A DNA stretch of 64,000 bases from Candidatus Blackburnbacteria bacterium. GTDB taxonomy: Bacteria > Patescibacteriota > Microgenomatia > UBA8517 > UBA10165. Below the pieces are notes generated by a model, which saw nothing but the letters and a program-made list of their open reading frames with translations, was not told the DNA's origin and did not search any database. The stretch is from the NCBI GenBank assembly GCA_016183565.1, contig JACPEJ010000001.1:226577-290576 (forward strand), written 5' to 3'. The translations under genes and the position numbers were made by a program. Shown here one piece after another: positions 4,052 through 51,148 of the stretch (position 1 is its first letter; the number at the start of each line of letters is the position of its first letter).

Positions 4052-4080
4052 TTGACATAGTATTTAAGGCTCGTTACAAT
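4052..4080 (+). promoter_or_regulatory. sigma70-like promoter upstream of tuf (TTGACA-17nt-TACAAT)
   Basis: TTGACA at 4052-4057, 17-nt spacer, TACAAT at 4075-4080; a 7-bp stem-loop ggactag/ctagtcc follows at 4088-4107. Confidence 0.6.
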
Positions 4081-4246
4081 ATCCTCTGGACTAGTTGGAG
4101 CTAGTCCGTTTCTTGTCAGCCTGATCTTAGCATTCGTCTTCAGGTACTATTCGTACACGACTCATGCTGCGATCTTGGGCGGACTGCGAAAACTTGTATA
4201 CAAGTTTTCTTGTCTTTTTACGAGAGACACGTTATAATTTAGGAAA

Positions 4247-5486: not shown

Positions 5487-5798
5487 ATGGCAGGAGCTGC
5501 GAGGATTAGAATCCGTTTAAAATCTTACGATCATAGGGTCATTGATGAGGCGGCAGCAAAAATTGTTGATGCTGTTTTGGCTGCTGGTTCTAAAGTAGTG
5601 GGTCCGGTTCCTCTTCCGACAGAAAGACACCTAACTGTTGTTAATACTTCTCCTCATACAGACAAGGATGCGCGTGAGCACTTCGAGATGTTGGTGCACA
5701 AAAGAATGATTGATATAATTCAGCCAACAGAGCGAACAATTGACGCGCTTTCTAATATGGAACTTCCTGCAGGAGTTTCGATTGAAGTTAAAATTTAA
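5487..5798 (+). CDS. rpsJ: 30S ribosomal protein S10
   Basis: [23 protein letters not shown]...[12 protein letters not shown] is a typical S10. Confidence 0.92.
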
Positions 5799-6187
5799 TT
5801 GGTAGCTTTCCTATACACCATCAAACCTTCAATTTTTTCGAAATCTTTTGTATTTAGAGTTGCTAATTCAAGATCATGGCTTAAAGCAGTTGCTGCTATT
5901 ACCGCATCTACAATATTTGTGCCATAAGCTGCTCTTATTCGTCCTGCTTTTTTTGATATTTCCTCGTCCAATTGCAATATTTTTATGCCAGAAAAAAGAG
6001 TTTCAAGAGCAACTCTTGCCTTTTCTATTTCCCAGACACTTTTGCCAGCATAGCTTTCAGTGTGTGCCACAATGGAAGTATATAATTGATATTCTTTCTC
6101 CAGGAGATTATACAAAACGGTCTGACTTTTATCTTTTAGTCGTAGGTAGTCGATAATTATTGAAGAGTCCAGAAGTATTTTGGACAT
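5795..6187 (-). CDS. vapC: PIN-domain toxin VapC
   Basis: [11 protein letters not shown] ... [10 protein letters not shown] ... TLNTKDF shows the PIN acidic residue pattern; 1-nt spacing from the upstream antitoxin gene. Confidence 0.75.
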
Positions 6188-6188
6188 T

Positions 6189-6437
6189 TTACCAATTATA
6201 CCTTTTCGATCTTTCTTCAATTTCAGATCTCATTTTCCTGTAATCTTCGTAGTTTTTTTCTGTAAACCAGTCTGTTTTTAAGTTGATAATCTTTTGGGTA
6301 TAATCTTCAGAAGGCTTTTTTGTGCTAAGTTTTTCTCTGATCACAGCCGAAAGGCTCTTTCTTTTCCTAAAAGCCTCTTCTTTAAGACTTAAATAATCGT
6401 CTTCAGGCAATCTGATATTAGTGGTGATGTAGTTCAT
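6189..6437 (-). CDS. vapB: ribbon-helix-helix antitoxin (VapB/CopG-like)
   Basis: 82 aa; N-terminal TTNIRLPEDDYLSLKEEA is an RHH-type beta strand plus helix; operonic with the PIN toxin. Confidence 0.65.
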   Translation of the reverse strand: MNYITTNIRLPEDDYLSLKEEAFRKRKSLSAVIREKLSTKKPSEDYTQKIINLKTDWFTEKNYEDYRKMRSEIEERSKRYNW

Positions 6438-6565
6438 ATAACAATTGTATCATTGTATTACTTCTTGTCAAGTCTAGATGGTTGCTGTGTGTTTAGGTCG
6501 CGATACATACCGTACAGTTGTGTCTACGGCATACTTCCAGTTGCCAGGGTTAGAACTTGCGTTTC

Positions 6566-6594
6566 TTGCGCACTCCGTGCGTATTTGGTATACT
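6566..6594 (+). promoter_or_regulatory. sigma70-like promoter for the rplC operon (TTGCGC-17-TATACT)
   Basis: TTGCGC at 6566-6571, 17-nt spacer, TATACT at 6589-6594. Confidence 0.5.
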
Positions 6595-6660
6595 ACATAT
6601 TGTGGAGGTGGTTTTGAACCTTCTTTAGCACCAGTATTGCCAGAAAGGGCCCCTTGATTG

Positions 6661-6685
6661 GAGCGCTAGAAGGCGCTCTTTTTTG
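6661..6685 (+). terminator. leader terminator/attenuator hairpin 12 nt upstream of the rplC ATG
   Basis: gagcgc-tagaag-gcgctc stem-loop followed by ttttttg. Confidence 0.5.
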
Positions 6686-6696
6686 TGGAAAAACAT

Positions 6697-7452
6697 ATGC
6701 TAAATACTGTATTGGGAACAAAGCAAGGAATGAAGCAGATTTTTACTCGCGAAGGGGTAAGGTTGTCTGTGACTGTGGTTCAAGGTGGACCGAATGTTGT
6801 CACATATTTACGAACTCAAGACAAGGATGGCTATTGGGCGGTTCAGCTTGGGTTTGGAAGCCGAAGAATGAAAACCATCAAGAAGCCAGTTTTGGGACAT
6901 CTTAAGAAAGGACTTGTCCATACAACTTTGGAAGAACCACAAAAATATCCACGATTCCTCAAAGAAGTTAGAATATTATCCACAGAAGAAACAACATTAC
7001 AACTAGGAGATAGGATCAGTCCTACTGATGTTCTCAAGGCTGGGGATATTGTTCAGGTTACTGGGGTTTCGAAAGGTAAAGGTTTTGCAGGGGGAGTTAA
7101 AAGATGGGGTTTTCACGGTGGGCCGAAGACACATGGACAGTCTGATAGACATAGGGCTCCAGGTTCGATAGGTCAGGCTACAACTCCGGGACGGGTTTAT
7201 AAGGGTAAGAAGATGGCAGGGAGAATGGGGAGTGATCAGAAGACTATTAAAAATCTTGTAGTATTGAGTGTTTTGGAGACGGGTGAGATAGAACTTTCTG
7301 GTCCGGTTCCGGGAAGCAGGGGGTCTTTTTTGCAAATTAAAAAGATTGGAGAGGTAAAGACACCGTACGAGTTAGTTTCCACGAGGAGAGATACAGACAC
7401 AGATACAGAGACAGAGGAAAAGTCGGAAGTTGTAGGAGGGAAGGAGGCTTAA
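6697..7452 (+). CDS. rplC: 50S ribosomal protein L3 (with an acidic TDTDTETEE C-terminal tail)
   Basis: LGTKQGMKQIFTREG...FHGGPKTHGQSDRHRAPGSIG. Confidence 0.93.
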   Translation: MLNTVLGTKQGMKQIFTREGVRLSVTVVQGGPNVVTYLRTQDKDGYWAVQLGFGSRRMKTIKKPVLGHLKKGLVHTTLEEPQKYPRFLKEVRILSTEETTLQLGDRISPTDVLKAGDIVQVTGVSKGKGFAGGVKRWGFHGGPKTHGQSDRHRAPGSIGQATTPGRVYKGKKMAGRMGSDQKTIKNLVVLSVLETGEIELSGPVPGSRGSFLQIKKIGEVKTPYELVSTRRDTDTDTETEEKSEVVGGKEA

Positions 7453-9522: not shown

Positions 9523-9885
9523 ATGTTAATAAAAGCAGAACAAAAATACATAAGGATGAGTCCACGCAAGATAAGGTTAGTGGTAGATTCTGTGCGGGGT
9601 ATTAAGTTGCCTCAGCAGGTTTTGCTTTATCTTGAGCATGTTAACAAGAGGGCGGCAGGAGTGGTCTCGAAGTTAATCAAACAGGCGATTGCGAATGCTA
9701 CCAACAACCTAAGTTTGCCAGCTGATAAGCTCACGATTAAAGAGTTGCAGGTGGGTGGTGGGCCTGTGTATAAAAGAGGACAACCTGTGTCTCGTGGCCG
9801 CTTTCACCCTGTTTTAAAGCGTACTAGCCATGTGAGGATAGTTCTTGAATCTAAAGAGAGAGGAGGGAAAAACGGGAAACGTTAA
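9523..9885 (+). CDS. rplV: 50S ribosomal protein L22
   Basis: IRMSPRKIRLVVDSVRG; position in the cluster. Confidence 0.9.
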   Translation: MLIKAEQKYIRMSPRKIRLVVDSVRGIKLPQQVLLYLEHVNKRAAGVVSKLIKQAIANATNNLSLPADKLTIKELQVGGGPVYKRGQPVSRGRFHPVLKRTSHVRIVLESKERGGKNGKR

Positions 9886-9941
9886 ACGCAAAACGGCAGA
9901 CGAGAAATGTTAAACGTTTCGCGTTTTGCGTATCACATTGT

Positions 9942-10604
9942 ATGGGTCAAAAGGTTAATCCAGTAAATTTTAGAATTGGCGTTTCAAACACTTGGAAGTC
10001 TCGGTGGTTTGCAGAGAGAGGTGAATATAGGAAGTTTTTATTCGAGGATATTTTGTTAAGGCGATCTCTTGAGGAGAAATTGAAACTTGCTGGAGTTTGC
10101 AGTGTTGACATTGAGCGTTTGCCAAAGGCGATGACGATTAGGTTGTTAGTGTCTCGCCCCGGTATTGTTATTGGTAGAGGAGGATCGGGTATTGAGGATG
10201 TTAAAAAATTTGTAGTTGAAAAGTTAGGTTTTACACCCAAGAGCCCAAAACTTTCTAAGATTGAGATTATTGTGGAAGAAGTGAAAAATTCGGATTTGTC
10301 AGCACGATTGGTGGCGCAGAGGATTACTGGTGAACTGGAGCGTAGGATGCCACATCGTCGTGTTGTGACAAAGATTATGGAAAGAGTAATGGCAGCAGGG
10401 GCGAAGGGTATAAGAATATCTCTTGCTGGTAGAATTGGGGGGGCAGACATTGCAAGGTCGGAGAAATTTCAGGTTGGTTCGGTTCCGACACAGAGTTTGC
10501 GGGCAGATATTGATTATGCGCAGGCGCAGGCTCTTTTGAAAAAGGGATATGTTGGAATAAAGGTTTGGGTTTATAAAGGGCAGGAGGAAAATCATGCAGC
10601 CTAA
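9942..10604 (+). CDS. rpsC: 30S ribosomal protein S3
   Basis: MGQKVNPVNFRIGV..., KH domain. Confidence 0.93.
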   Translation: MGQKVNPVNFRIGVSNTWKSRWFAERGEYRKFLFEDILLRRSLEEKLKLAGVCSVDIERLPKAMTIRLLVSRPGIVIGRGGSGIEDVKKFVVEKLGFTPKSPKLSKIEIIVEEVKNSDLSARLVAQRITGELERRMPHRRVVTKIMERVMAAGAKGIRISLAGRIGGADIARSEKFQVGSVPTQSLRADIDYAQAQALLKKGYVGIKVWVYKGQEENHAA

Positions 10605-11230: not shown

Positions 11231-11532
11231 AAGTTTTTATAGGAAAAGTAAAAAGCGTGAGTTTGACAAAAACTGTAATTGTGGAAGTTGAGCGTTTTCG
11301 TGTTCATCCAATCTACGAGAAACGCACAAGAAGCACAAAGAGATATCCTGTACATGATGAGATAGGTGTAAAAGAGCGCGATGTGGTGGAGTTTAAAGAG
11401 ACAAGGCCTATATCAAAGACCAAGAGGTGGATGATAACACGAGTGTTGGGGAAGAGAAAAGAGGAAGAACGGGAAACGTTAAACGCAAAACGACAGATGG
11501 GAAACAAACGCAAAGTTGCCACTTCGCGGTAA
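11227..11532 (+). CDS. rpsQ: 30S ribosomal protein S17 (C-terminal extension encoded by a repeat element)
   Basis: GKVKSVSLTKTVIVEVERFRVHPIYEKR. Confidence 0.88.
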   Translation: MKVFIGKVKSVSLTKTVIVEVERFRVHPIYEKRTRSTKRYPVHDEIGVKERDVVEFKETRPISKTKRWMITRVLGKRKEEERETLNAKRQMGNKRKVATSR

Positions 11533-17321: not shown

Positions 17322-17490
17322 AGCGGGGCCTGTCGCGCGCTCGTCCTCGGTCCGTATGTCCTCACTAGCGCTGCGGTCGCTCGACGGGACTCCTCGTTCG
17401 AGTCTGAGCCGATTCGGCCTGAGCTCACGGTCGAAGGACCTGAGGGCTCATCCCTCAGAGTCGAAGACCTCCCATACTGACACCCGCCTT
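17322..17490 (+). repeat. GC-rich structured repeat element, copy 1 (intergenic, ends in a T-run)
   Basis: ~165 nt at >60% GC in a ~40% GC genome; a near-identical copy lies at 49946-50078 inside recJ; internal palindromes (ctgagggctcatccctcag). Confidence 0.8.
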
Positions 17491-20308: not shown

Positions 20309-21265
20309 TTGGGTAAAACAAATCAGAATTTCTCTTCAACTTCGTATAAACCGTTATTGTTTCAATTAGAACAAAAAGAAACACAAGAAACCTACGGTGA
20401 ATTTGTAATAGAACCTTTGGAACAAGGATATGGGCACACATTGGGTACTTCTTTGCGTCGAGTTTTGCTAACTGGTCTTTCTGGTGCGGCAATAACACAG
20501 GTTAAAATTGTTGGCATGAAGCATCAATTTGGTCCTGTAAAGGGTGTAAAAGAAGATGGGGTGGATTTACTACTTAATCTTAAGAAGATTAGGGTTTCTT
20601 ATTCAGGCGAGAAGCCTGTTAAACTTACACTCTCTGCGAAAGGAAAGGGTCAGGTTTTAGCAGGAGATATAAAAACACCAGCTGATGTTCAGATAGCGAA
20701 TCCAGATTTTGTTATTGCGACTTTGGCAGATGATAAAAGCAAGCTTGAATTAGAGCTTCAAGTAGAATCCGGTGTTGGCTACTCTCCTTCGGAGGATCGT
20801 AAGACTAATATGGTTGGACAGATTCCATTAGATGCTGACTTTTCGCCACTACGTCGTGTGAATTACAAAGTTGAAGAAACACGAGTTGGGCGTCTTACGA
20901 ATTATGATAAGTTGACTTTGCAGGTGTGGACGGATGGTTCAGTGAATGCTTCAGATGCTGTTAAAAAAGCGTCTGAAATACTGTTAGGTTATTTTAACCA
21001 TCTTGTTTCTCCTGTGGTTAAAAATAGTTCTGCTGTAAAAACTAAAAATTTGGAAACTTCAGTAACAAGTAAGTTTTCAGTTGAAGAGCTAAGTCTTCCT
21101 ACAAGGATTGTAAATGCTTTGATTGGAGCTTCGTATGAAACAGTTGAAGATATTGTTCGTTCGAACAAGACAGAACTTGCCAAGATCAGAAATTTGGGAG
21201 AAAAGTCAGTTAAAATAATAGAAGCAGCTCTTGGAGAAAAAGGTATTTCTTGGAAAGGAGAGTAG
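20309..21265 (+). CDS. rpoA: DNA-directed RNA polymerase subunit alpha (TTG start, strong SD taaggaggtg)
   Basis: EPLEQGYGHTLGTSLRRVLL; 318 aa with a C-terminal domain. Confidence 0.92.
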   Translation: MGKTNQNFSSTSYKPLLFQLEQKETQETYGEFVIEPLEQGYGHTLGTSLRRVLLTGLSGAAITQVKIVGMKHQFGPVKGVKEDGVDLLLNLKKIRVSYSGEKPVKLTLSAKGKGQVLAGDIKTPADVQIANPDFVIATLADDKSKLELELQVESGVGYSPSEDRKTNMVGQIPLDADFSPLRRVNYKVEETRVGRLTNYDKLTLQVWTDGSVNASDAVKKASEILLGYFNHLVSPVVKNSSAVKTKNLETSVTSKFSVEELSLPTRIVNALIGASYETVEDIVRSNKTELAKIRNLGEKSVKIIEAALGEKGISWKGE

Positions 21266-31737: not shown

Positions 31738-31809
31738 CGTAACAGATCATTCCCTTCGGGAATGGAAAACAAATCAGAATTTGTCTTCAACTGCGTATAA
31801 AAATGTAGT

Positions 31810-32886: not shown

Positions 32887-33334
32887 ACTAGGAATGAGTA
32901 AGCCAGGTTCTGTTTCCGCTAGTTGGCGGAGGCGATAATCTATCTAACGCCCTCAAACTTTGATGCTTCCGGAAGCTGGTAATAGCCTGCCTAGACTTAA
33001 TGTCTTAGCAGGGCTGGCGCATCGTTCGGAGGTTGCAGCGGGGAGGATTGCCTCTTTTCACCCTCTGCCCTGTTAGCTTTAGGCTAACGAGATGAGTCGT
33101 TGTCTCTGTGGCTCTAACTGGCGGTTTGCCTTCGACTATTTCGACAAACTCAGTACAAGTTCGCTCAGGCAACCCTGAGCTTGCCGAAGGGTTCCCGCCT
33201 CGGCTTACGCCGAGCACCCTGCTTCCTGCTGCCTGGACTTTCCTCCCCGCCATTCGCTTCCCACTTGGCTTTGGGTTCTATTCGAACGCGCCTCGTGGTG
33301 CGCTTCGGCGGGGTAATCGCCCTGTTTCCTAGGT
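32886..33334 (-). ncRNA. rnpB: RNase P RNA (bacterial type; ~449 nt)
   Basis: on the minus strand: GGAGGAAAGTCCAGGC (5' strand of P4) ... AGGGTGAAA ... ACAGAACCTGGCTTAC (3' strand of P4), with compensatory A:U in P4; P1 pairing cctaggaa/ttcctag; terminator follows. Confidence 0.8.
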
Positions 33335-33388
33335 ATGCGTATCATACCAAAAGTAGCCTTAAAAGTCAATTACTACAGGTGAGTCTTG

Positions 33389-33418: not shown

Positions 33419-33550
33419 TAGGTTTAGGTGAATCTGGCTCGCCCAATCTTACCTCTCGCCTTACCTACTATTCGTAGCGCGGCGCGAGGAGCGATTTAGG
33501 TCGAGCTGCGCCAAGTCAGACTTGGCTTGAAAGGAGGTGAGGGAAACAAA

Positions 33551-35415: not shown

Positions 35416-35985
35416 GTGCAACTTTCTTTAAGTCGAACATTGGGACAGATGAGGCTTGTTTTAAAGGACCCAGAAAGTGTTGGGCCTTTCACTGTTTATG
35501 AGGTTTTTCGCGATGATTCGGATGGTTGGGCAAACAAGACTGTAATTTATCCTGGTAAGTTGGGTGAGGAATATACAAAGACGTTTGGACATTATCATCC
35601 GGAGGGTGCGCCGGATGAAGTATATCGTGTGATTGAAGGGGAAGGTATTCTGGAGCTTCAGAAAAAACATTTGGGGAATGATCAATTGGTTTCTTTCCAG
35701 GTAGACGAAGTTTTATTGATAAAAGCCAAATCAGGGGATGAGATTGTTATTACCCCAGAATATGGTCATTCGTGGTCTAATGTAGGTAGTACTCCTTTGA
35801 TTCTTCTTGATGATTGGGAGGTTGGTCATACAGGAGCTGATTATGAGCAGATTGGGAAATTTCATGGTATGGCTTACTATCTTGTAGAACTAAACGGTGG
35901 GCCTAGAGCTTTTCCTAACCCAAATTACGAGAATCTTCCGGAGCCTGTTTTTTTGACAGCAAAGGAGTTTAAAAGACCCTCCTGA
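35416..35985 (+). CDS. cupin-type glucose-6-phosphate isomerase-like protein (cPGI family)
   Basis: TFGHYHPEGAPDEVYRVIEGEG and EYGHSW are consistent with the His/Glu metal site of cupin PGIs; start codon uncertain. Confidence 0.5.
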   Translation: MQLSLSRTLGQMRLVLKDPESVGPFTVYEVFRDDSDGWANKTVIYPGKLGEEYTKTFGHYHPEGAPDEVYRVIEGEGILELQKKHLGNDQLVSFQVDEVLLIKAKSGDEIVITPEYGHSWSNVGSTPLILLDDWEVGHTGADYEQIGKFHGMAYYLVELNGGPRAFPNPNYENLPEPVFLTAKEFKRPS

Positions 35986-36052
35986 TCTTACCATTCGCCT
36001 TCAGGTACTATTCGTACACGGCTCATGGAGCGATCTTAGGAGGGCAAGGGAG

Positions 36053-39052: not shown

Positions 39053-39670
39053 CTACAACAACCCCTTTTGTTGTAAAAACTTTTTTAATCTTTCGTTGGT
39101 TCTGTATTGCTGGCCTATTGATACAAATAGATTGTTAATTTTTGTCCAGTGCTTCTTAGGTAGAATTTTTGTAAGGGCTTTTTCTGTTTGCTCTGGGGTT
39201 TTTGTATTAACCCATCCTAGTACATTTGCAATACGGTGAACATGTGTGTCGACACCTATTGCAGGGATATTGAAAGCACGAGCTAAAACTATATTTGCAG
39301 TTTTTCTACCGACACCTGGGAGGGATGTAAGTTCCTCAAGGTTTTTTGGCACATTCCCCCCAAACCTTTTTATTATTTCTTCTGAGAGTTTCTTTAAGTT
39401 TTTTGCTTTGTTTTTATAGAAATTAACCGGTTTTATTGTGTCTGCTAGTTCTTTAACTGATAACTTACTTATGAATTCTGCATCGGCTGTGATTTCAAAG
39501 AGTTTTTTGCACACTTGTGCTGTTGTTTCGTCACGTGTGCGGGCGGACAGCATTGTCGCGACAAGTGTTTGAAACGGTGTTTTTGAGACTTCTATTAAGG
39601 GGATTTCTTGGTAGTGTTTTTGGAAGACTGTAAAAACTTTTTTTACTGATGGGGTCATTTTCTTTCTCAC
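39053..39670 (-). CDS. HhH-GPD base-excision DNA glycosylase, endonuclease III-like but without the C-terminal Fe-S cysteine cluster
   Basis: LVATMLSARTRDETT...LPGVGRKTANIVL; no Cys-x6-Cys-x2-Cys-x5-Cys motif; GTG start. Confidence 0.7.
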   Translation of the reverse strand: MRKKMTPSVKKVFTVFQKHYQEIPLIEVSKTPFQTLVATMLSARTRDETTAQVCKKLFEITADAEFISKLSVKELADTIKPVNFYKNKAKNLKKLSEEIIKRFGGNVPKNLEELTSLPGVGRKTANIVLARAFNIPAIGVDTHVHRIANVLGWVNTKTPEQTEKALTKILPKKHWTKINNLFVSIGQQYRTNERLKKFLQQKGLL

Positions 39671-39809
39671 CTACTGTTTGTAGCGCGGCTCGTGCTGCGA
39701 TTTTAGGAGGACTTTGGGCTATTTGTATTTAGAGTTGTCCTTCGTAACCAAAAGGAACCCCGGAAGGGGTGTCCTCTTGGAATTCAAGTTTAGTCCGCCA
39801 GTTGGTGGA

Positions 39810-49381: not shown

Positions 49382-51148
49382 ATGGAAAGCAGTAAGCAGG
49401 TAGAAAAGGTTATCAGCACACTTTTGGTCAATCGTGGGGTAGTGACAAAAAAACAGAGGGAAGAGTTTTTTAATCCTCCACATCCCACAAAGATTACTTT
49501 TCGCCAGGTAGGTATTGATAAGAAGCAGGTTGCGCGGGCTGTTGCAAGGGTTAAAAAAGCGATTGACGAGAAAGAGAAAATAATTGTTTATGGAGATTAT
49601 GATGTTGATGGGATTTGTGCAGCTGCAATTTTGTGGGAAACCTTAAAAAGTTTGGGCGCAGATGTTTTGCCATATATACCAAGTAGATTTACGGAAGGGT
49701 ATGGCTTAAACATAGAGTCTATACAGAAACTCAAAGAAGAAGATCCTGCCATTGGTCTTATTATTACTGTAGATAACGGTATTGTTGCTCACGAAAAGAT
49801 TGATTTCGCGAAGGGGTTGGGAGTGGATGTAGTTATTACTGATCATCATCAGCCGGCGGAAACCTTACCATCTGCGCATGCGATTGTACATACCACACAA
49901 GTATCTGGTAGTGCTGTTGCTTGGTTTTTTGCGTGTGAACTTGTTGCCGCGGGGCCTGTCGGGAGCTCGTCCTCGGCCCGTATATCCTCGCTTAACGCTG
50001 CGGGCGCTCGGCGGGACTCCTCGTTCGAGTCTGAGCCTGAGGGCTCATCCCTCAGAGTCGAAGACCTCCGCTCCCGACACCCGCTTGAGTTGCTCGCTGA
50101 CCATCTGGGGCTTGCAGCTCTTGGGACAGTTGCAGATATTTTACCTTTAGTTGGGTATAATCGGTCACTTGTTTATCATGGCCTCGAGATTTTAAGAAAA
50201 ACTAAACGTCCTGGGGTGGTGGCCATATGTCGCGAGGCAGGGATAAAACAGGAAGAAATTGACATTTTCCATATCGGCTTTATGATTGCCCCTCGACTTA
50301 ATGCGGCGGGTCGTATGGAACACGCTATCAATAGCTTGAGACTTTTGTGTACTACACAAAAAGCGCGGGCGGAGATGTTGGCCCTTGCTTTGGGGCAAGC
50401 AAATAGAAAAAGACAAGAAAGTACAGAGCTTGCTGTAAAGCATATTGAAACTAATTACTCGTCCCAGTGGACTCAAAATGGTCTGCCTAAGGTTTTGTTC
50501 GCTTACCATAGTTCTTACGAGGAGGGTGTAGTCGGGATTGTTGCGGGGAGATTGGTCGAGAAGTATTATAGGCCAGCAATAGTGGTTTCTTATGGCGAAG
50601 CTTTATCAAAAGCATCAGCAAGGTCAATTGCTGGTATCGATATTATTGATACTATAAGAAAGGCTGGTGAAGGAATTTTACTAGGTGCGGGGGGGCACCC
50701 TATGGCAGCTGGTTTTAGTTTAGAGAGTAAGAAGATAAGTGAGTTTGCCGCTCGTTTAGATGAAGTGATGTTGGATGTTCCGGAAGGGGTTTTTAAAAGA
50801 GAGTTTCGAGTGGACTGTGACCTTCTATTTGCTGGTATTTCAGAAGAGCTTTATGGGGTTATTGTTAAGTTTGCTCCTTTTGGTTTTGGTAATCCTCAGC
50901 CGACATTTCGCACATCAGAAGTCTTTGTACAGGATGCAAGGTTGCTAGGAAAACAAAATGAGCATCTCAAGCTTTTTGTTGCTCAAGAAAAAGAGGGGAA
51001 AGGGTATGAGGCTATTGGTTTTAGAATGGGTGAACTATATTCAAGGTTGGATTCTTGTAATCCTGTAACTATTATATATTCGCTTGAGGAGGATCAGTGG
51101 AATGGGAGGAAGAAACTTCAATTGCGGCTGCGGCAGGTTGAATTATAG
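49382..51148 (+). CDS. recJ: single-stranded-DNA-specific exonuclease RecJ, carrying an in-frame ~43-codon GC-rich insert
   Basis: DHH motifs (YGDYDVDG, DHH), DHHA1 with GGHPMAAG; insert GPVGSSSSARISSLNAAGARRDSSFESEPEGSSLRVEDLRSRHP. Confidence 0.88.
   Translation: MESSKQVEKVISTLLVNRGVVTKKQREEFFNPPHPTKITFRQVGIDKKQVARAVARVKKAIDEKEKIIVYGDYDVDGICAAAILWETLKSLGADVLPYIPSRFTEGYGLNIESIQKLKEEDPAIGLIITVDNGIVAHEKIDFAKGLGVDVVITDHHQPAETLPSAHAIVHTTQVSGSAVAWFFACELVAAGPVGSSSSARISSLNAAGARRDSSFESEPEGSSLRVEDLRSRHPLELLADHLGLAALGTVADILPLVGYNRSLVYHGLEILRKTKRPGVVAICREAGIKQEEIDIFHIGFMIAPRLNAAGRMEHAINSLRLLCTTQKARAEMLALALGQANRKRQESTELAVKHIETNYSSQWTQNGLPKVLFAYHSSYEEGVVGIVAGRLVEKYYRPAIVVSYGEALSKASARSIAGIDIIDTIRKAGEGILLGAGGHPMAAGFSLESKKISEFAARLDEVMLDVPEGVFKREFRVDCDLLFAGISEELYGVIVKFAPFGFGNPQPTFRTSEVFVQDARLLGKQNEHLKLFVAQEKEGKGYEAIGFRMGELYSRLDSCNPVTIIYSLEEDQWNGRKKLQLRLRQVEL
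49946..50078 (+). repeat. GC-rich structured repeat element, copy 2 (in-frame inside recJ)
   Basis: ~90% identical to 17322-17490 except for a 30-nt internal deletion. Confidence 0.8.

Follow-up and report, generated by a model that had tools for sequence, protein, structure and literature searches.

A hairpin element of about 70 nt, designated hp1, is present in five copies in the window (the whole 64-kb stretch of DNA analysed here) and belongs to a family that is new to the databases searched, lineage-wide but patchy. What selection acts on is the folded single strand, either RNA or single-stranded DNA. The element is a discrete cassette that closely related genomes gain and lose, and that occurs in either orientation and in tandem and decays. 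It is neither tied to any gene family nor strictly oriented, and it does not serve as a dedicated regulator of tuf, comM or the membrane genes. The reading preferred here, at roughly even odds (a probability of about 0.5), is that the copies are non-autonomous mobile, or at least indel-prone, structured hairpin cassettes of the REP/REPIN, PATE or MITE kind.

Copies of the element in the window

The five copies, A, B, C, E and D, all lie on the plus strand, the first four being full and D consisting of the 3' half (Table 1). The four copies listed in the original prediction, A to D, are all present on that strand. The covariance-model scan that it proposed was carried out on the window without filters, using a model called R1, and gave strong scores for A, B and C (E-values of about 1e-20 to 1e-22), a weak one for D (21 bits) and a further copy, E, absent from the original list. 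Simple patterns are also enriched, a 13-nt core matching four times against 0.4 expected and a 48-nt gapped pattern three times (A, B and C) against 0 expected. In a MAFFT alignment of A, B and C, the mean column identity is 83%, and the differences between A and B are mostly compensatory pairs.

Table 1. Positions of the hp1 copies in the window and of the hairpins and promoter-like sites close to copies A and C
Feature	Positions	Strand	Remarks
Promoter-like TTGACA-17-TACAAT upstream of copy A	4052-4080	+	11/12 matches
Small hairpin between the TTGACA-17-TACAAT site and copy A	4087-4108		
Copy A (hp1)	4115-4184	+	252-nt fusA-tuf spacer; R1 78.4 bits, E 5e-20
Second hairpin after copy A	4188-4209	+	Terminator-like, tail TTGTCTTTTT; preceded by CUGCG
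Promoter-like TTGTCT-17-TATAAT between copy A and the tuf ATG (4247)	4210-4238	+	10/12 matches
Copy E, diverged	33245-33313 (R1 match 33243-33316)	+	R1 45.7 bits, E 1.5e-10; fold z -3.7
Copy C	33436-33507	+	R1 84.4 bits
Second hairpin after copy C	33510-33526	+	GCCAAGUCAGACUUGGC, then SD AAAGGAGGUGA
Copy B	35977-36044	+	R1 87.3 bits
Copy D, relic	39670-39712	+	R1 21 bits, E ~0.002; many broken pairs

Copy A folds into one rod (-26 kcal/mol, z -3.4, reaching -5.0 with its flanks). Transcripts starting at the promoter-like site that follows it would be without the element. Upstream of copy B, a cupin/GPI ORF extends 10 nt into the basal helix P1 and stops at the UGA of the copy itself (35983-35985), and the Shine-Dalgarno sequence (SD) and GTG of a 67-aa ORF come directly 3'. 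Copy C stands 3' of a promoter-like TTGACA-17-AATACT and 5' of the gene for a small MscS-like membrane protein. Copy E, about 120 nt upstream of copy C, retains pairing in helices P2 (CCAC/GUGG), P3 (GGC/GCC) and P4 (GUUC/GAAC), and a further hairpin stands 3' of it at 33332-33348; a similar subtype is found at 3286-3359 of L050 (L numbers designate the loci compared). In copy D, the stretch from P4 to the 3' strand of P1 is retained, whereas the 5' half has been replaced by the minus-strand SD and start of nth; the low R1 score follows from this loss, as the lost half no longer pairs. An hp2-like hairpin (39712-39754) and a GC hairpin (39757-39770) lie 3' of copy D. The 3' end had been described as running into the SD of the downstream gene in three copies. 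This holds roughly for copy B only, since copy C and its SD are separated by the second hairpin, the 57 nt from copy A to the tuf SD contain a hairpin and a promoter-like site, and the AGGAGG of copy D is the 3' strand of P1.

Other repeats are found in the window. A GC-rich repeat of about 135-165 nt occurs at 17323-17487, between adk and map, and at 49949-50084 with about 90% identity; the latter copy lies inside a recJ-like ORF (49382-51148), between DHH and DHHA1, and recalls in-frame insertions of palindromic elements. Neither an Rfam match nor a significant fold energy was obtained for this repeat. A 36-nt repeat, AAAACAAATCAGAATTTCTCTTCAACTTCGTATAAA, is found at 20315-20350 and 31766-31801 with 94% identity, one copy just upstream of an ORF start (31810) and the other at an ORF start (20309). 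A purine-rich 42-nt repeat at 9866-9907 and 11463-11504 (90% identity) belongs to the ribosomal-protein operon region.

Structure of hp1

A full copy forms a single rod of about 70 nt composed of the helices P1, P1b, P2, P3 and P4, its internal loops being conserved and its apical loop UAUUC. P1 comprises 7 bp with the consensus CCNCC/GGNGG, namely CCUCC/GGAGG in about half of the copies and CCGCC/GGCGG in the other half, and is followed by a 2-nt 3' bulge and by P1b, which is GAUC/GAUC or AAUC/GAUU. A 3x3 internal loop, UUA/AGC, stands between P1b and P2, a 4-bp helix with a nearly free sequence in which each pair displays two to three pair types. P2 is separated by a UC/UC loop from P3 (GCC/GGC). 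The asymmetric loop between P3 and P4 exists in two subtypes, UUAC...CGC in copies C and D and UUCAG...AC in copies A and B, and the 4-bp P4 is capped by the apical loop. The 4-bp mini-hairpin initially proposed must thus be replaced by a four-helix hairpin of about 70 nt. The compensatory change noticed at its centre, GTAC/GTAC versus CTAC/GTAG, is real and family-wide, the pair being C-G in 42, G-C in 28, A-U in 2 and U-G in 1 of 76 copies, with 3 mismatches.

In the 76-copy alignment, standard pairs fill 92.6% of pair cells, compared with 34-44% once the partners are slid. Double-sided changes are observed in 19 of the 21 pairs, and none of 500 shuffles matches the observed values. Single-sequence fold z-scores of full copies range from -2.0 to -3.7. 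Wobble-type counts are equivalent overall (33 G-U vs 34 A-C), whereas in the inner helices G-U exceeds A-C (15 vs 5), which mildly favours RNA of the modelled strand. Loop conservation is overstated because 61 of the 76 copies were ascertained with a window-derived pattern that fixes many loop bases; in the 15 pattern-independent copies, however, the helices still pair, and the UAUUC loop and the loop bases CUU/CUC/GCG are kept. Stems that covary together with loop bases that stay fixed thus place the folded single strand under selection. A tRNA-like fold was considered and rejected, as ARAGORN finds only a tRNA-Pro in the window and the covariation describes a rod, not a cloverleaf.

Distribution and database searches

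The family was searched with a 22-position pattern in GTDB contigs, one genome per species, and 58 loci were matched. All informatively titled ones are Microgenomates/Patescibacteria MAGs, the named hosts including Levy-, Roizman-, Woese- and Gottesmanbacteria. The total of 76 copies was reached with R1 in these 58 loci and the window, and includes the 15 that do not match the search pattern. In the protein collection, no entry exceeds 92% identity to the EF-Tu of the window, whose nearest named relatives are Blackburnbacteria and Woesebacteria. A pattern search in IMG/VR returned no copy, and a phage origin was therefore rejected. With Rfam 15 at the gathering score, no family matched the element in the window or in any of the 58 loci, in keeping with the initial remark that it was not recognised as any known riboswitch or ribosomal-protein leader. 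In permissive Rfam searches, copy B found no match at E-values up to 10, and hp1 plus hp2 of L035 gave only noise (12-13 bits). Full-text literature searches returned no description of the hairpin element.

Second hairpins and neighbouring signals

A second hairpin, hp2, nearly always stands directly 3' of hp1. In class 1, hp2 has covarying stems and the conserved ends NUAAGAA...UUUCUAA, and it ends either 2-3 nt before an SD, which is left free, or 3 nt before the 5' end of a tRNA or tmRNA. Class 2 consists of CUKCG and a simple hairpin, followed by a strong TTGACA-17/18-TAnnnT promoter and a nearly leaderless gene. Copy A has this layout; copies C and E carry CUKCG or a simple second hairpin with no adjacent promoter. 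In class 3, the end of hp2 is CAUCAAAAAA and a GC hairpin adjoins it; together they constitute the intrinsic terminator of the opposite-strand gene. A pseudoknot between hp1 and hp2 (UCUUA with UAAGA) was dropped, since only class 1 would allow it and classes 2 and 3 lack it. The 3' strand of hp2 was also considered as a native target, in a guide-like scheme, and rejected because the same UUUCUAA also precedes tRNA and tmRNA.

A purine run of at least 7 nt starts between +34 and +47 after hp1 in 25 of 70 copies. At about ten loci, hp1 and hp2 are followed by terminator hairpins, and most adjoining terminators have their U-run on the opposite strand only. Taken as an intrinsic terminator itself, hp1 was ruled out, as it is followed by a second hairpin and not by U-runs and is also found inside the rplJ-rplL operon. 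Promoter-like sites are located 1-45 nt upstream of about 15 copies. Inspection by eye of hp1 and hp2 revealed no acceptable -35/-10 pair on either strand, and copies in antisense context have no consistent promoter of their own upstream.

Genomic context and orientation

The protein genes directly 3' of sense copies include tuf (copy A), rplL (L003, L024 and L039), recA, rpsU and the gene for an RRM protein, as well as pth and the genes for a Fur-like protein, a response regulator and many small membrane proteins. Sense copies also stand 5' of 16S rRNA (L019, L028 and L031; gap of 23), of 23S rRNA (L037; gap of 2 nt), of tmRNA (L048) and of tRNAs (L049 and L058). In the tRNA/tmRNA context the gap is about 41, and hp2 stops 3 nt short of the mature 5' end. 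For seven sense copies in all, the 5' end of a stable RNA is no more than about 200 nt away. In L018 (2398-2536), hp1 abuts an AdoCbl-II riboswitch aptamer (B12) on the same strand, with an overlap of about 10 nt. On the minus strand of L028 (~440-507), a hairpin ending in UGCUCUUUAACA stands between hp1 and the 16S rRNA. This motif presumably corresponds to the boxA antitermination consensus, in which case hp1 would lie upstream of boxA in the rRNA leader of L028.

The downstream genes are functionally unrelated and share no common pathway. As copies precede rRNA, tRNA and tmRNA, a translational device is excluded as a general mechanism, and the copies located upstream of the promoter of the next gene are not part of its mRNA. 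Comparison with 16S, partial 23S and tmRNA revealed no mimicry or complementarity beyond SD/anti-SD and 7-8-mers.

Relative to neighbouring genes coding for 100 aa or more, 26 copies were co-oriented with both neighbours, 15 were opposed to both, 14 lay in divergent and 6 in convergent regions. With tandems collapsed, the co-oriented and opposed copies number about 22 vs 12, which is not clearly different from random. A called downstream feature is available for 65 copies, of which 44 face it and 21 do not, and opposed copies match sense copies in R1 score. In L035 and L045, a copy in antisense separates the rpsJ terminator from the start of rplC, and L050 contains a tandem array of three copies about 118 nt apart. 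The original prediction had proposed a leader element shared by unrelated genes, and had reasoned that random strand and placement would instead indicate a simple dispersed repeat. The sharing by unrelated genes and the frequent location in 5' leaders are borne out. A dedicated cis-regulatory leader is not, in view of the orientation, the absence in relatives and the copies upstream of promoters; the 26 co-oriented and 15 opposed copies come close to the dispersed-repeat pattern.

In the window, the S10 operon is itself split between rpsJ (~5487-5798) and rplC (~6697-7452) by an apparently VapBC-like pair on the minus strand (5795-6437), made up of a gene for a PIN-domain toxin (PF01850) and, upstream of it, an ORF of 82 aa; another 250 nt (6438-6690) are non-coding.

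Gain and loss between relatives

The spacers that hold the element in one genome are found without it in others. The fusA-tuf spacer of L035 is only 68 nt long and lacks it. The five closest relatives by EF-Tu (89-92% identity) were also scanned with R1, and the 97 kb of their loci yielded no copy. Those of these loci that include a fusA-tuf or rpsJ-rplC spacer have other insertions there, and with such other cargo the two spacers look like insertion hot spots in the lineage. Two examples follow. In L084 (4320-5825), a set resembling a diversity-generating retroelement, with two RVT_1 ORFs and bAvd, lies between rpsJ and rplC. In L087 (8411-9188), a 223-aa Y1_Tnp protein with a weak match to REP-associated tyrosine transposases is encoded between fusA and tuf; its gene is flanked on both sides by CACACC(A/T)GGTGTG and looks like part of a RAYT-REP pair, with a sequence unrelated to hp1.

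In L003 the rplJ-rplL spacer contains hp1 and hp2, about 118 nt in total, whereas the element is lacking in L079 (spacer of 36 nt), L081 (24 nt) and L082 (4 nt), whose RplL proteins are 96%, 89% and 86% identical to that of L003. In L080 (91%), a different palindromic element takes the place of hp1 and hp2. The more distant L024 (85%) and L039 (76%) possess the rplJ-rplL copy. L003 and L079 can be aligned to the left and right of the indel, where L079 has about 19 unrelated nt, so this is not a clean insertion. No copies were found in 81.5 kb of L079-L082, against five in the 64-kb window, nor in 91 kb around the PGA_cap relatives, which are distant and of uncertain taxon. The palindrome of the L080 spacer (9906-10000) is a member of a second dispersed family characterized by CTCGCAATGAC, which also occurs in L022, L043, L045 and L053; about 550 kb contain six exact 11-mers, whereas about 0.3 would be expected.

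The subtypes of hp1 travel together with particular 3' modules. A cassette lineage with P2 GCAC/GCAU and hp2 UUGAUCGGC...CAUCAAAAAA occurs at unrelated loci in L032, L017 and L035/L045, and the similarity between its members sets in exactly at P1 and ends after the A-run.

Interpretation and alternatives

If the copies are portable cassettes, as preferred here, they would be recognized as a folded strand by a machinery acting in trans. The copies land in the few spacers tolerated by such compact genomes, among them rplJ-rplL, fusA-tuf, rpsJ-rplC, the leaders of stable RNAs and positions beside terminators. The 3' end seemingly prefers purine runs, either an SD or the A-run opposite the U-tract of a terminator, a preference that would explain both the leader-like sense copies and the antisense copies abutting terminators. 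A hairpin in sense orientation necessarily lies within the transcript, and putative secondary effects on 5' UTR processing, stability or insulation are probably to be expected. Several observations weigh against mobility. No transposase, reverse transcriptase or other mobilizing gene is linked to the element, no flanking direct repeats or target-site duplications were found, nor terminal inverted repeats beyond P1, and no genome contains near-identical copies of the kind left by a recent burst. The loops are conserved across very divergent lineages, far above the level of REP families and as expected of an RNA with a host function, and placement is non-random, with about two thirds of the copies facing the next gene. 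For these reasons, two rivals were retained.

The more probable of them, given about half the weight of the portable cassette, is a host-selected cis-acting RNA module, i.e., a general 5'-leader or intercistronic element of highly expressed transcripts, which would serve as an endonuclease site, as a 5' stabilizer or as insulation of the SD or the mature 5' end, and would be recruited by duplication or recombination. The sense copies directly 5' of the SD-ATG of abundant proteins (tuf, rplL, recA and rpsU) or of 16S, 23S, tmRNA and tRNA argue for it, as do the promoter-like sites upstream of some 15 copies, the SD left free by hp2, the strong loop conservation and the G-U excess of the inner helices. 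However, the 21 of 65 copies not facing a downstream feature score as well as sense copies, class-2 copies precede the promoter that serves the next gene, close relatives have the same spacers without the element and with no sign of replacement, and a mere stabilizing hairpin needs no conserved sequence. Such a cis-acting role overlaps with mobility, since a mobile cassette could have the same effects. A trans-acting or catalytic RNA, the other rival, is unlikely; it could act as a small RNA encoded in many copies, bind a protein or cleave itself as a new ribozyme, and would be expressed either independently or, in the manner of tRNA genes, as part of strong transcription units. The distribution is indeed reminiscent of tRNA genes, with copies beside tuf, in the leaders of rRNA, tRNA and tmRNA, in tandem and in both orientations. 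Terminator hairpins follow hp1-hp2 at about ten loci, ribozymes and protein-binding RNAs typically combine covarying stems with conserved unpaired nucleotides, and the hairpin-rich unit repeated every ~118 nt in L050 is similar to ribozyme arrays. On the other side, antisense-context copies have no consistent upstream promoter, most adjoining terminators point to the opposite strand by their U-run, about 180 kb of close relatives contain no copies, which would be odd for an essential RNA, and no known ribozyme or small-RNA family is matched.

A metabolite or ion riboswitch, or an autoregulatory ribosomal-protein leader, is essentially excluded. A conserved domain followed by variable second hairpins does evoke an aptamer with its expression platforms, and a CCUCC/GGAGG P1 could act as an anti-SD and SD mimic, an alternative fold of this kind being seen for copy C only; otherwise hp1 and the second hairpin form side by side in the predicted folds. 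Nevertheless, P1 is CCGCC/GGCGG in the other half of the copies, antisense copies exist, and the copies share no downstream pathway and precede rRNA, tRNA, tmRNA and even another riboswitch. Similarity to 16S, 23S and tmRNA does not go beyond the SD, and the element is not conserved upstream of tuf or rplL in relatives. The ribosomal-protein leader was specifically rejected on the absence from the fusA-tuf and rplJ-rplL spacers of close relatives and on the lack of rRNA-site mimicry; a true L10 leader was found separately in L039.

A bolder version of these ideas, which must be regarded as a long shot, sees in hp1 either a new catalytic or nuclease-recognized RNA, or the RNA or single-stranded DNA recognition module of a mobilization system specific to Microgenomates. 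If catalytic, hp1 and hp2 would form a natural mobile "insulator" cassette cutting itself out of 5' leaders, and would standardize the 5' ends of mRNAs, rRNA, tRNA and tmRNA in these bacteria. A catalytic RNA or processing signal would then represent a compact natural 5'-UTR insulator and a new RNA class, whereas mobilization as folded DNA would point to a machinery new to science.

Bacteria of the candidate phyla radiation have tiny, gene-dense genomes with almost no characterized non-coding elements, and a robustly covarying, lineage-wide structured element absent from the databases searched is of interest in this context. As portable cassettes, the hairpins would indicate that streamlined genomes too carry such elements, which remodel the spacers of core operons (fusA-tuf, rplJ-rplL and rpsJ-rplC) and rRNA leaders. 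For annotation, riboswitch or leader calls made from a single genome are unsafe for motifs of this type.

Comparison with known systems

The MITE, Correia, RPE and PATE (IS200/IS605) elements resemble hp1 as short non-coding cassettes with sharp boundaries that are present or absent between relatives. Insertion by gene starts or terminators, fusion with the end of an ORF (copy B) and co-transcribed RNA hairpins are further common points. Unlike them, hp1 displays neither a target-site duplication nor a parent insertion sequence, its only terminal inverted repeat is P1, with hp2 lying outside, and copies of the same genome are not near-identical but old and diverged by compensatory changes. HEARO/omega-RNA likewise combines strong covariation with a multi-copy, patchy and apparently mobile distribution, and was noticed before its function was known. 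In contrast to this system, hp1 is much smaller, has no associated nuclease or transposase ORF in 87 loci and no Rfam match. In terms of function only, the class-1 order of element, hairpin and free SD before many unrelated genes recalls, by its layout, processing or insulator hairpins placed before ribosome-binding sites, such as the RNase III sites of phage T7 and the synthetic RiboJ insulator, made of a ribozyme and a hairpin. Copies of hp1, by contrast, also occur in antisense and upstream of promoters.

The REP/REPIN-RAYT system differs from hp1 in several respects. hp1 is one rod of about 70 nt with three conserved asymmetric internal loops, its sequence is conserved Microgenomates-wide, whereas that of REP is conserved within a genus, and it has no terminal GTAG/CGTC tag, P1 beginning with YCCNCC and GUAG occurring only inside P4 of subtype a. 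No Y1_Tnp gene is present in the window or the hp1 loci, and a link to a RAYT/Y1 transposase was rejected, as the RAYT-like gene of L087, the sole one found, is flanked by a different palindrome. The likeness lies in the general organization: both are extragenic imperfect palindromes, often placed right after stop codons, found in both orientations and in tandem clusters, with copy numbers that are very different between genomes, and in both the folded single strand is the selected form.
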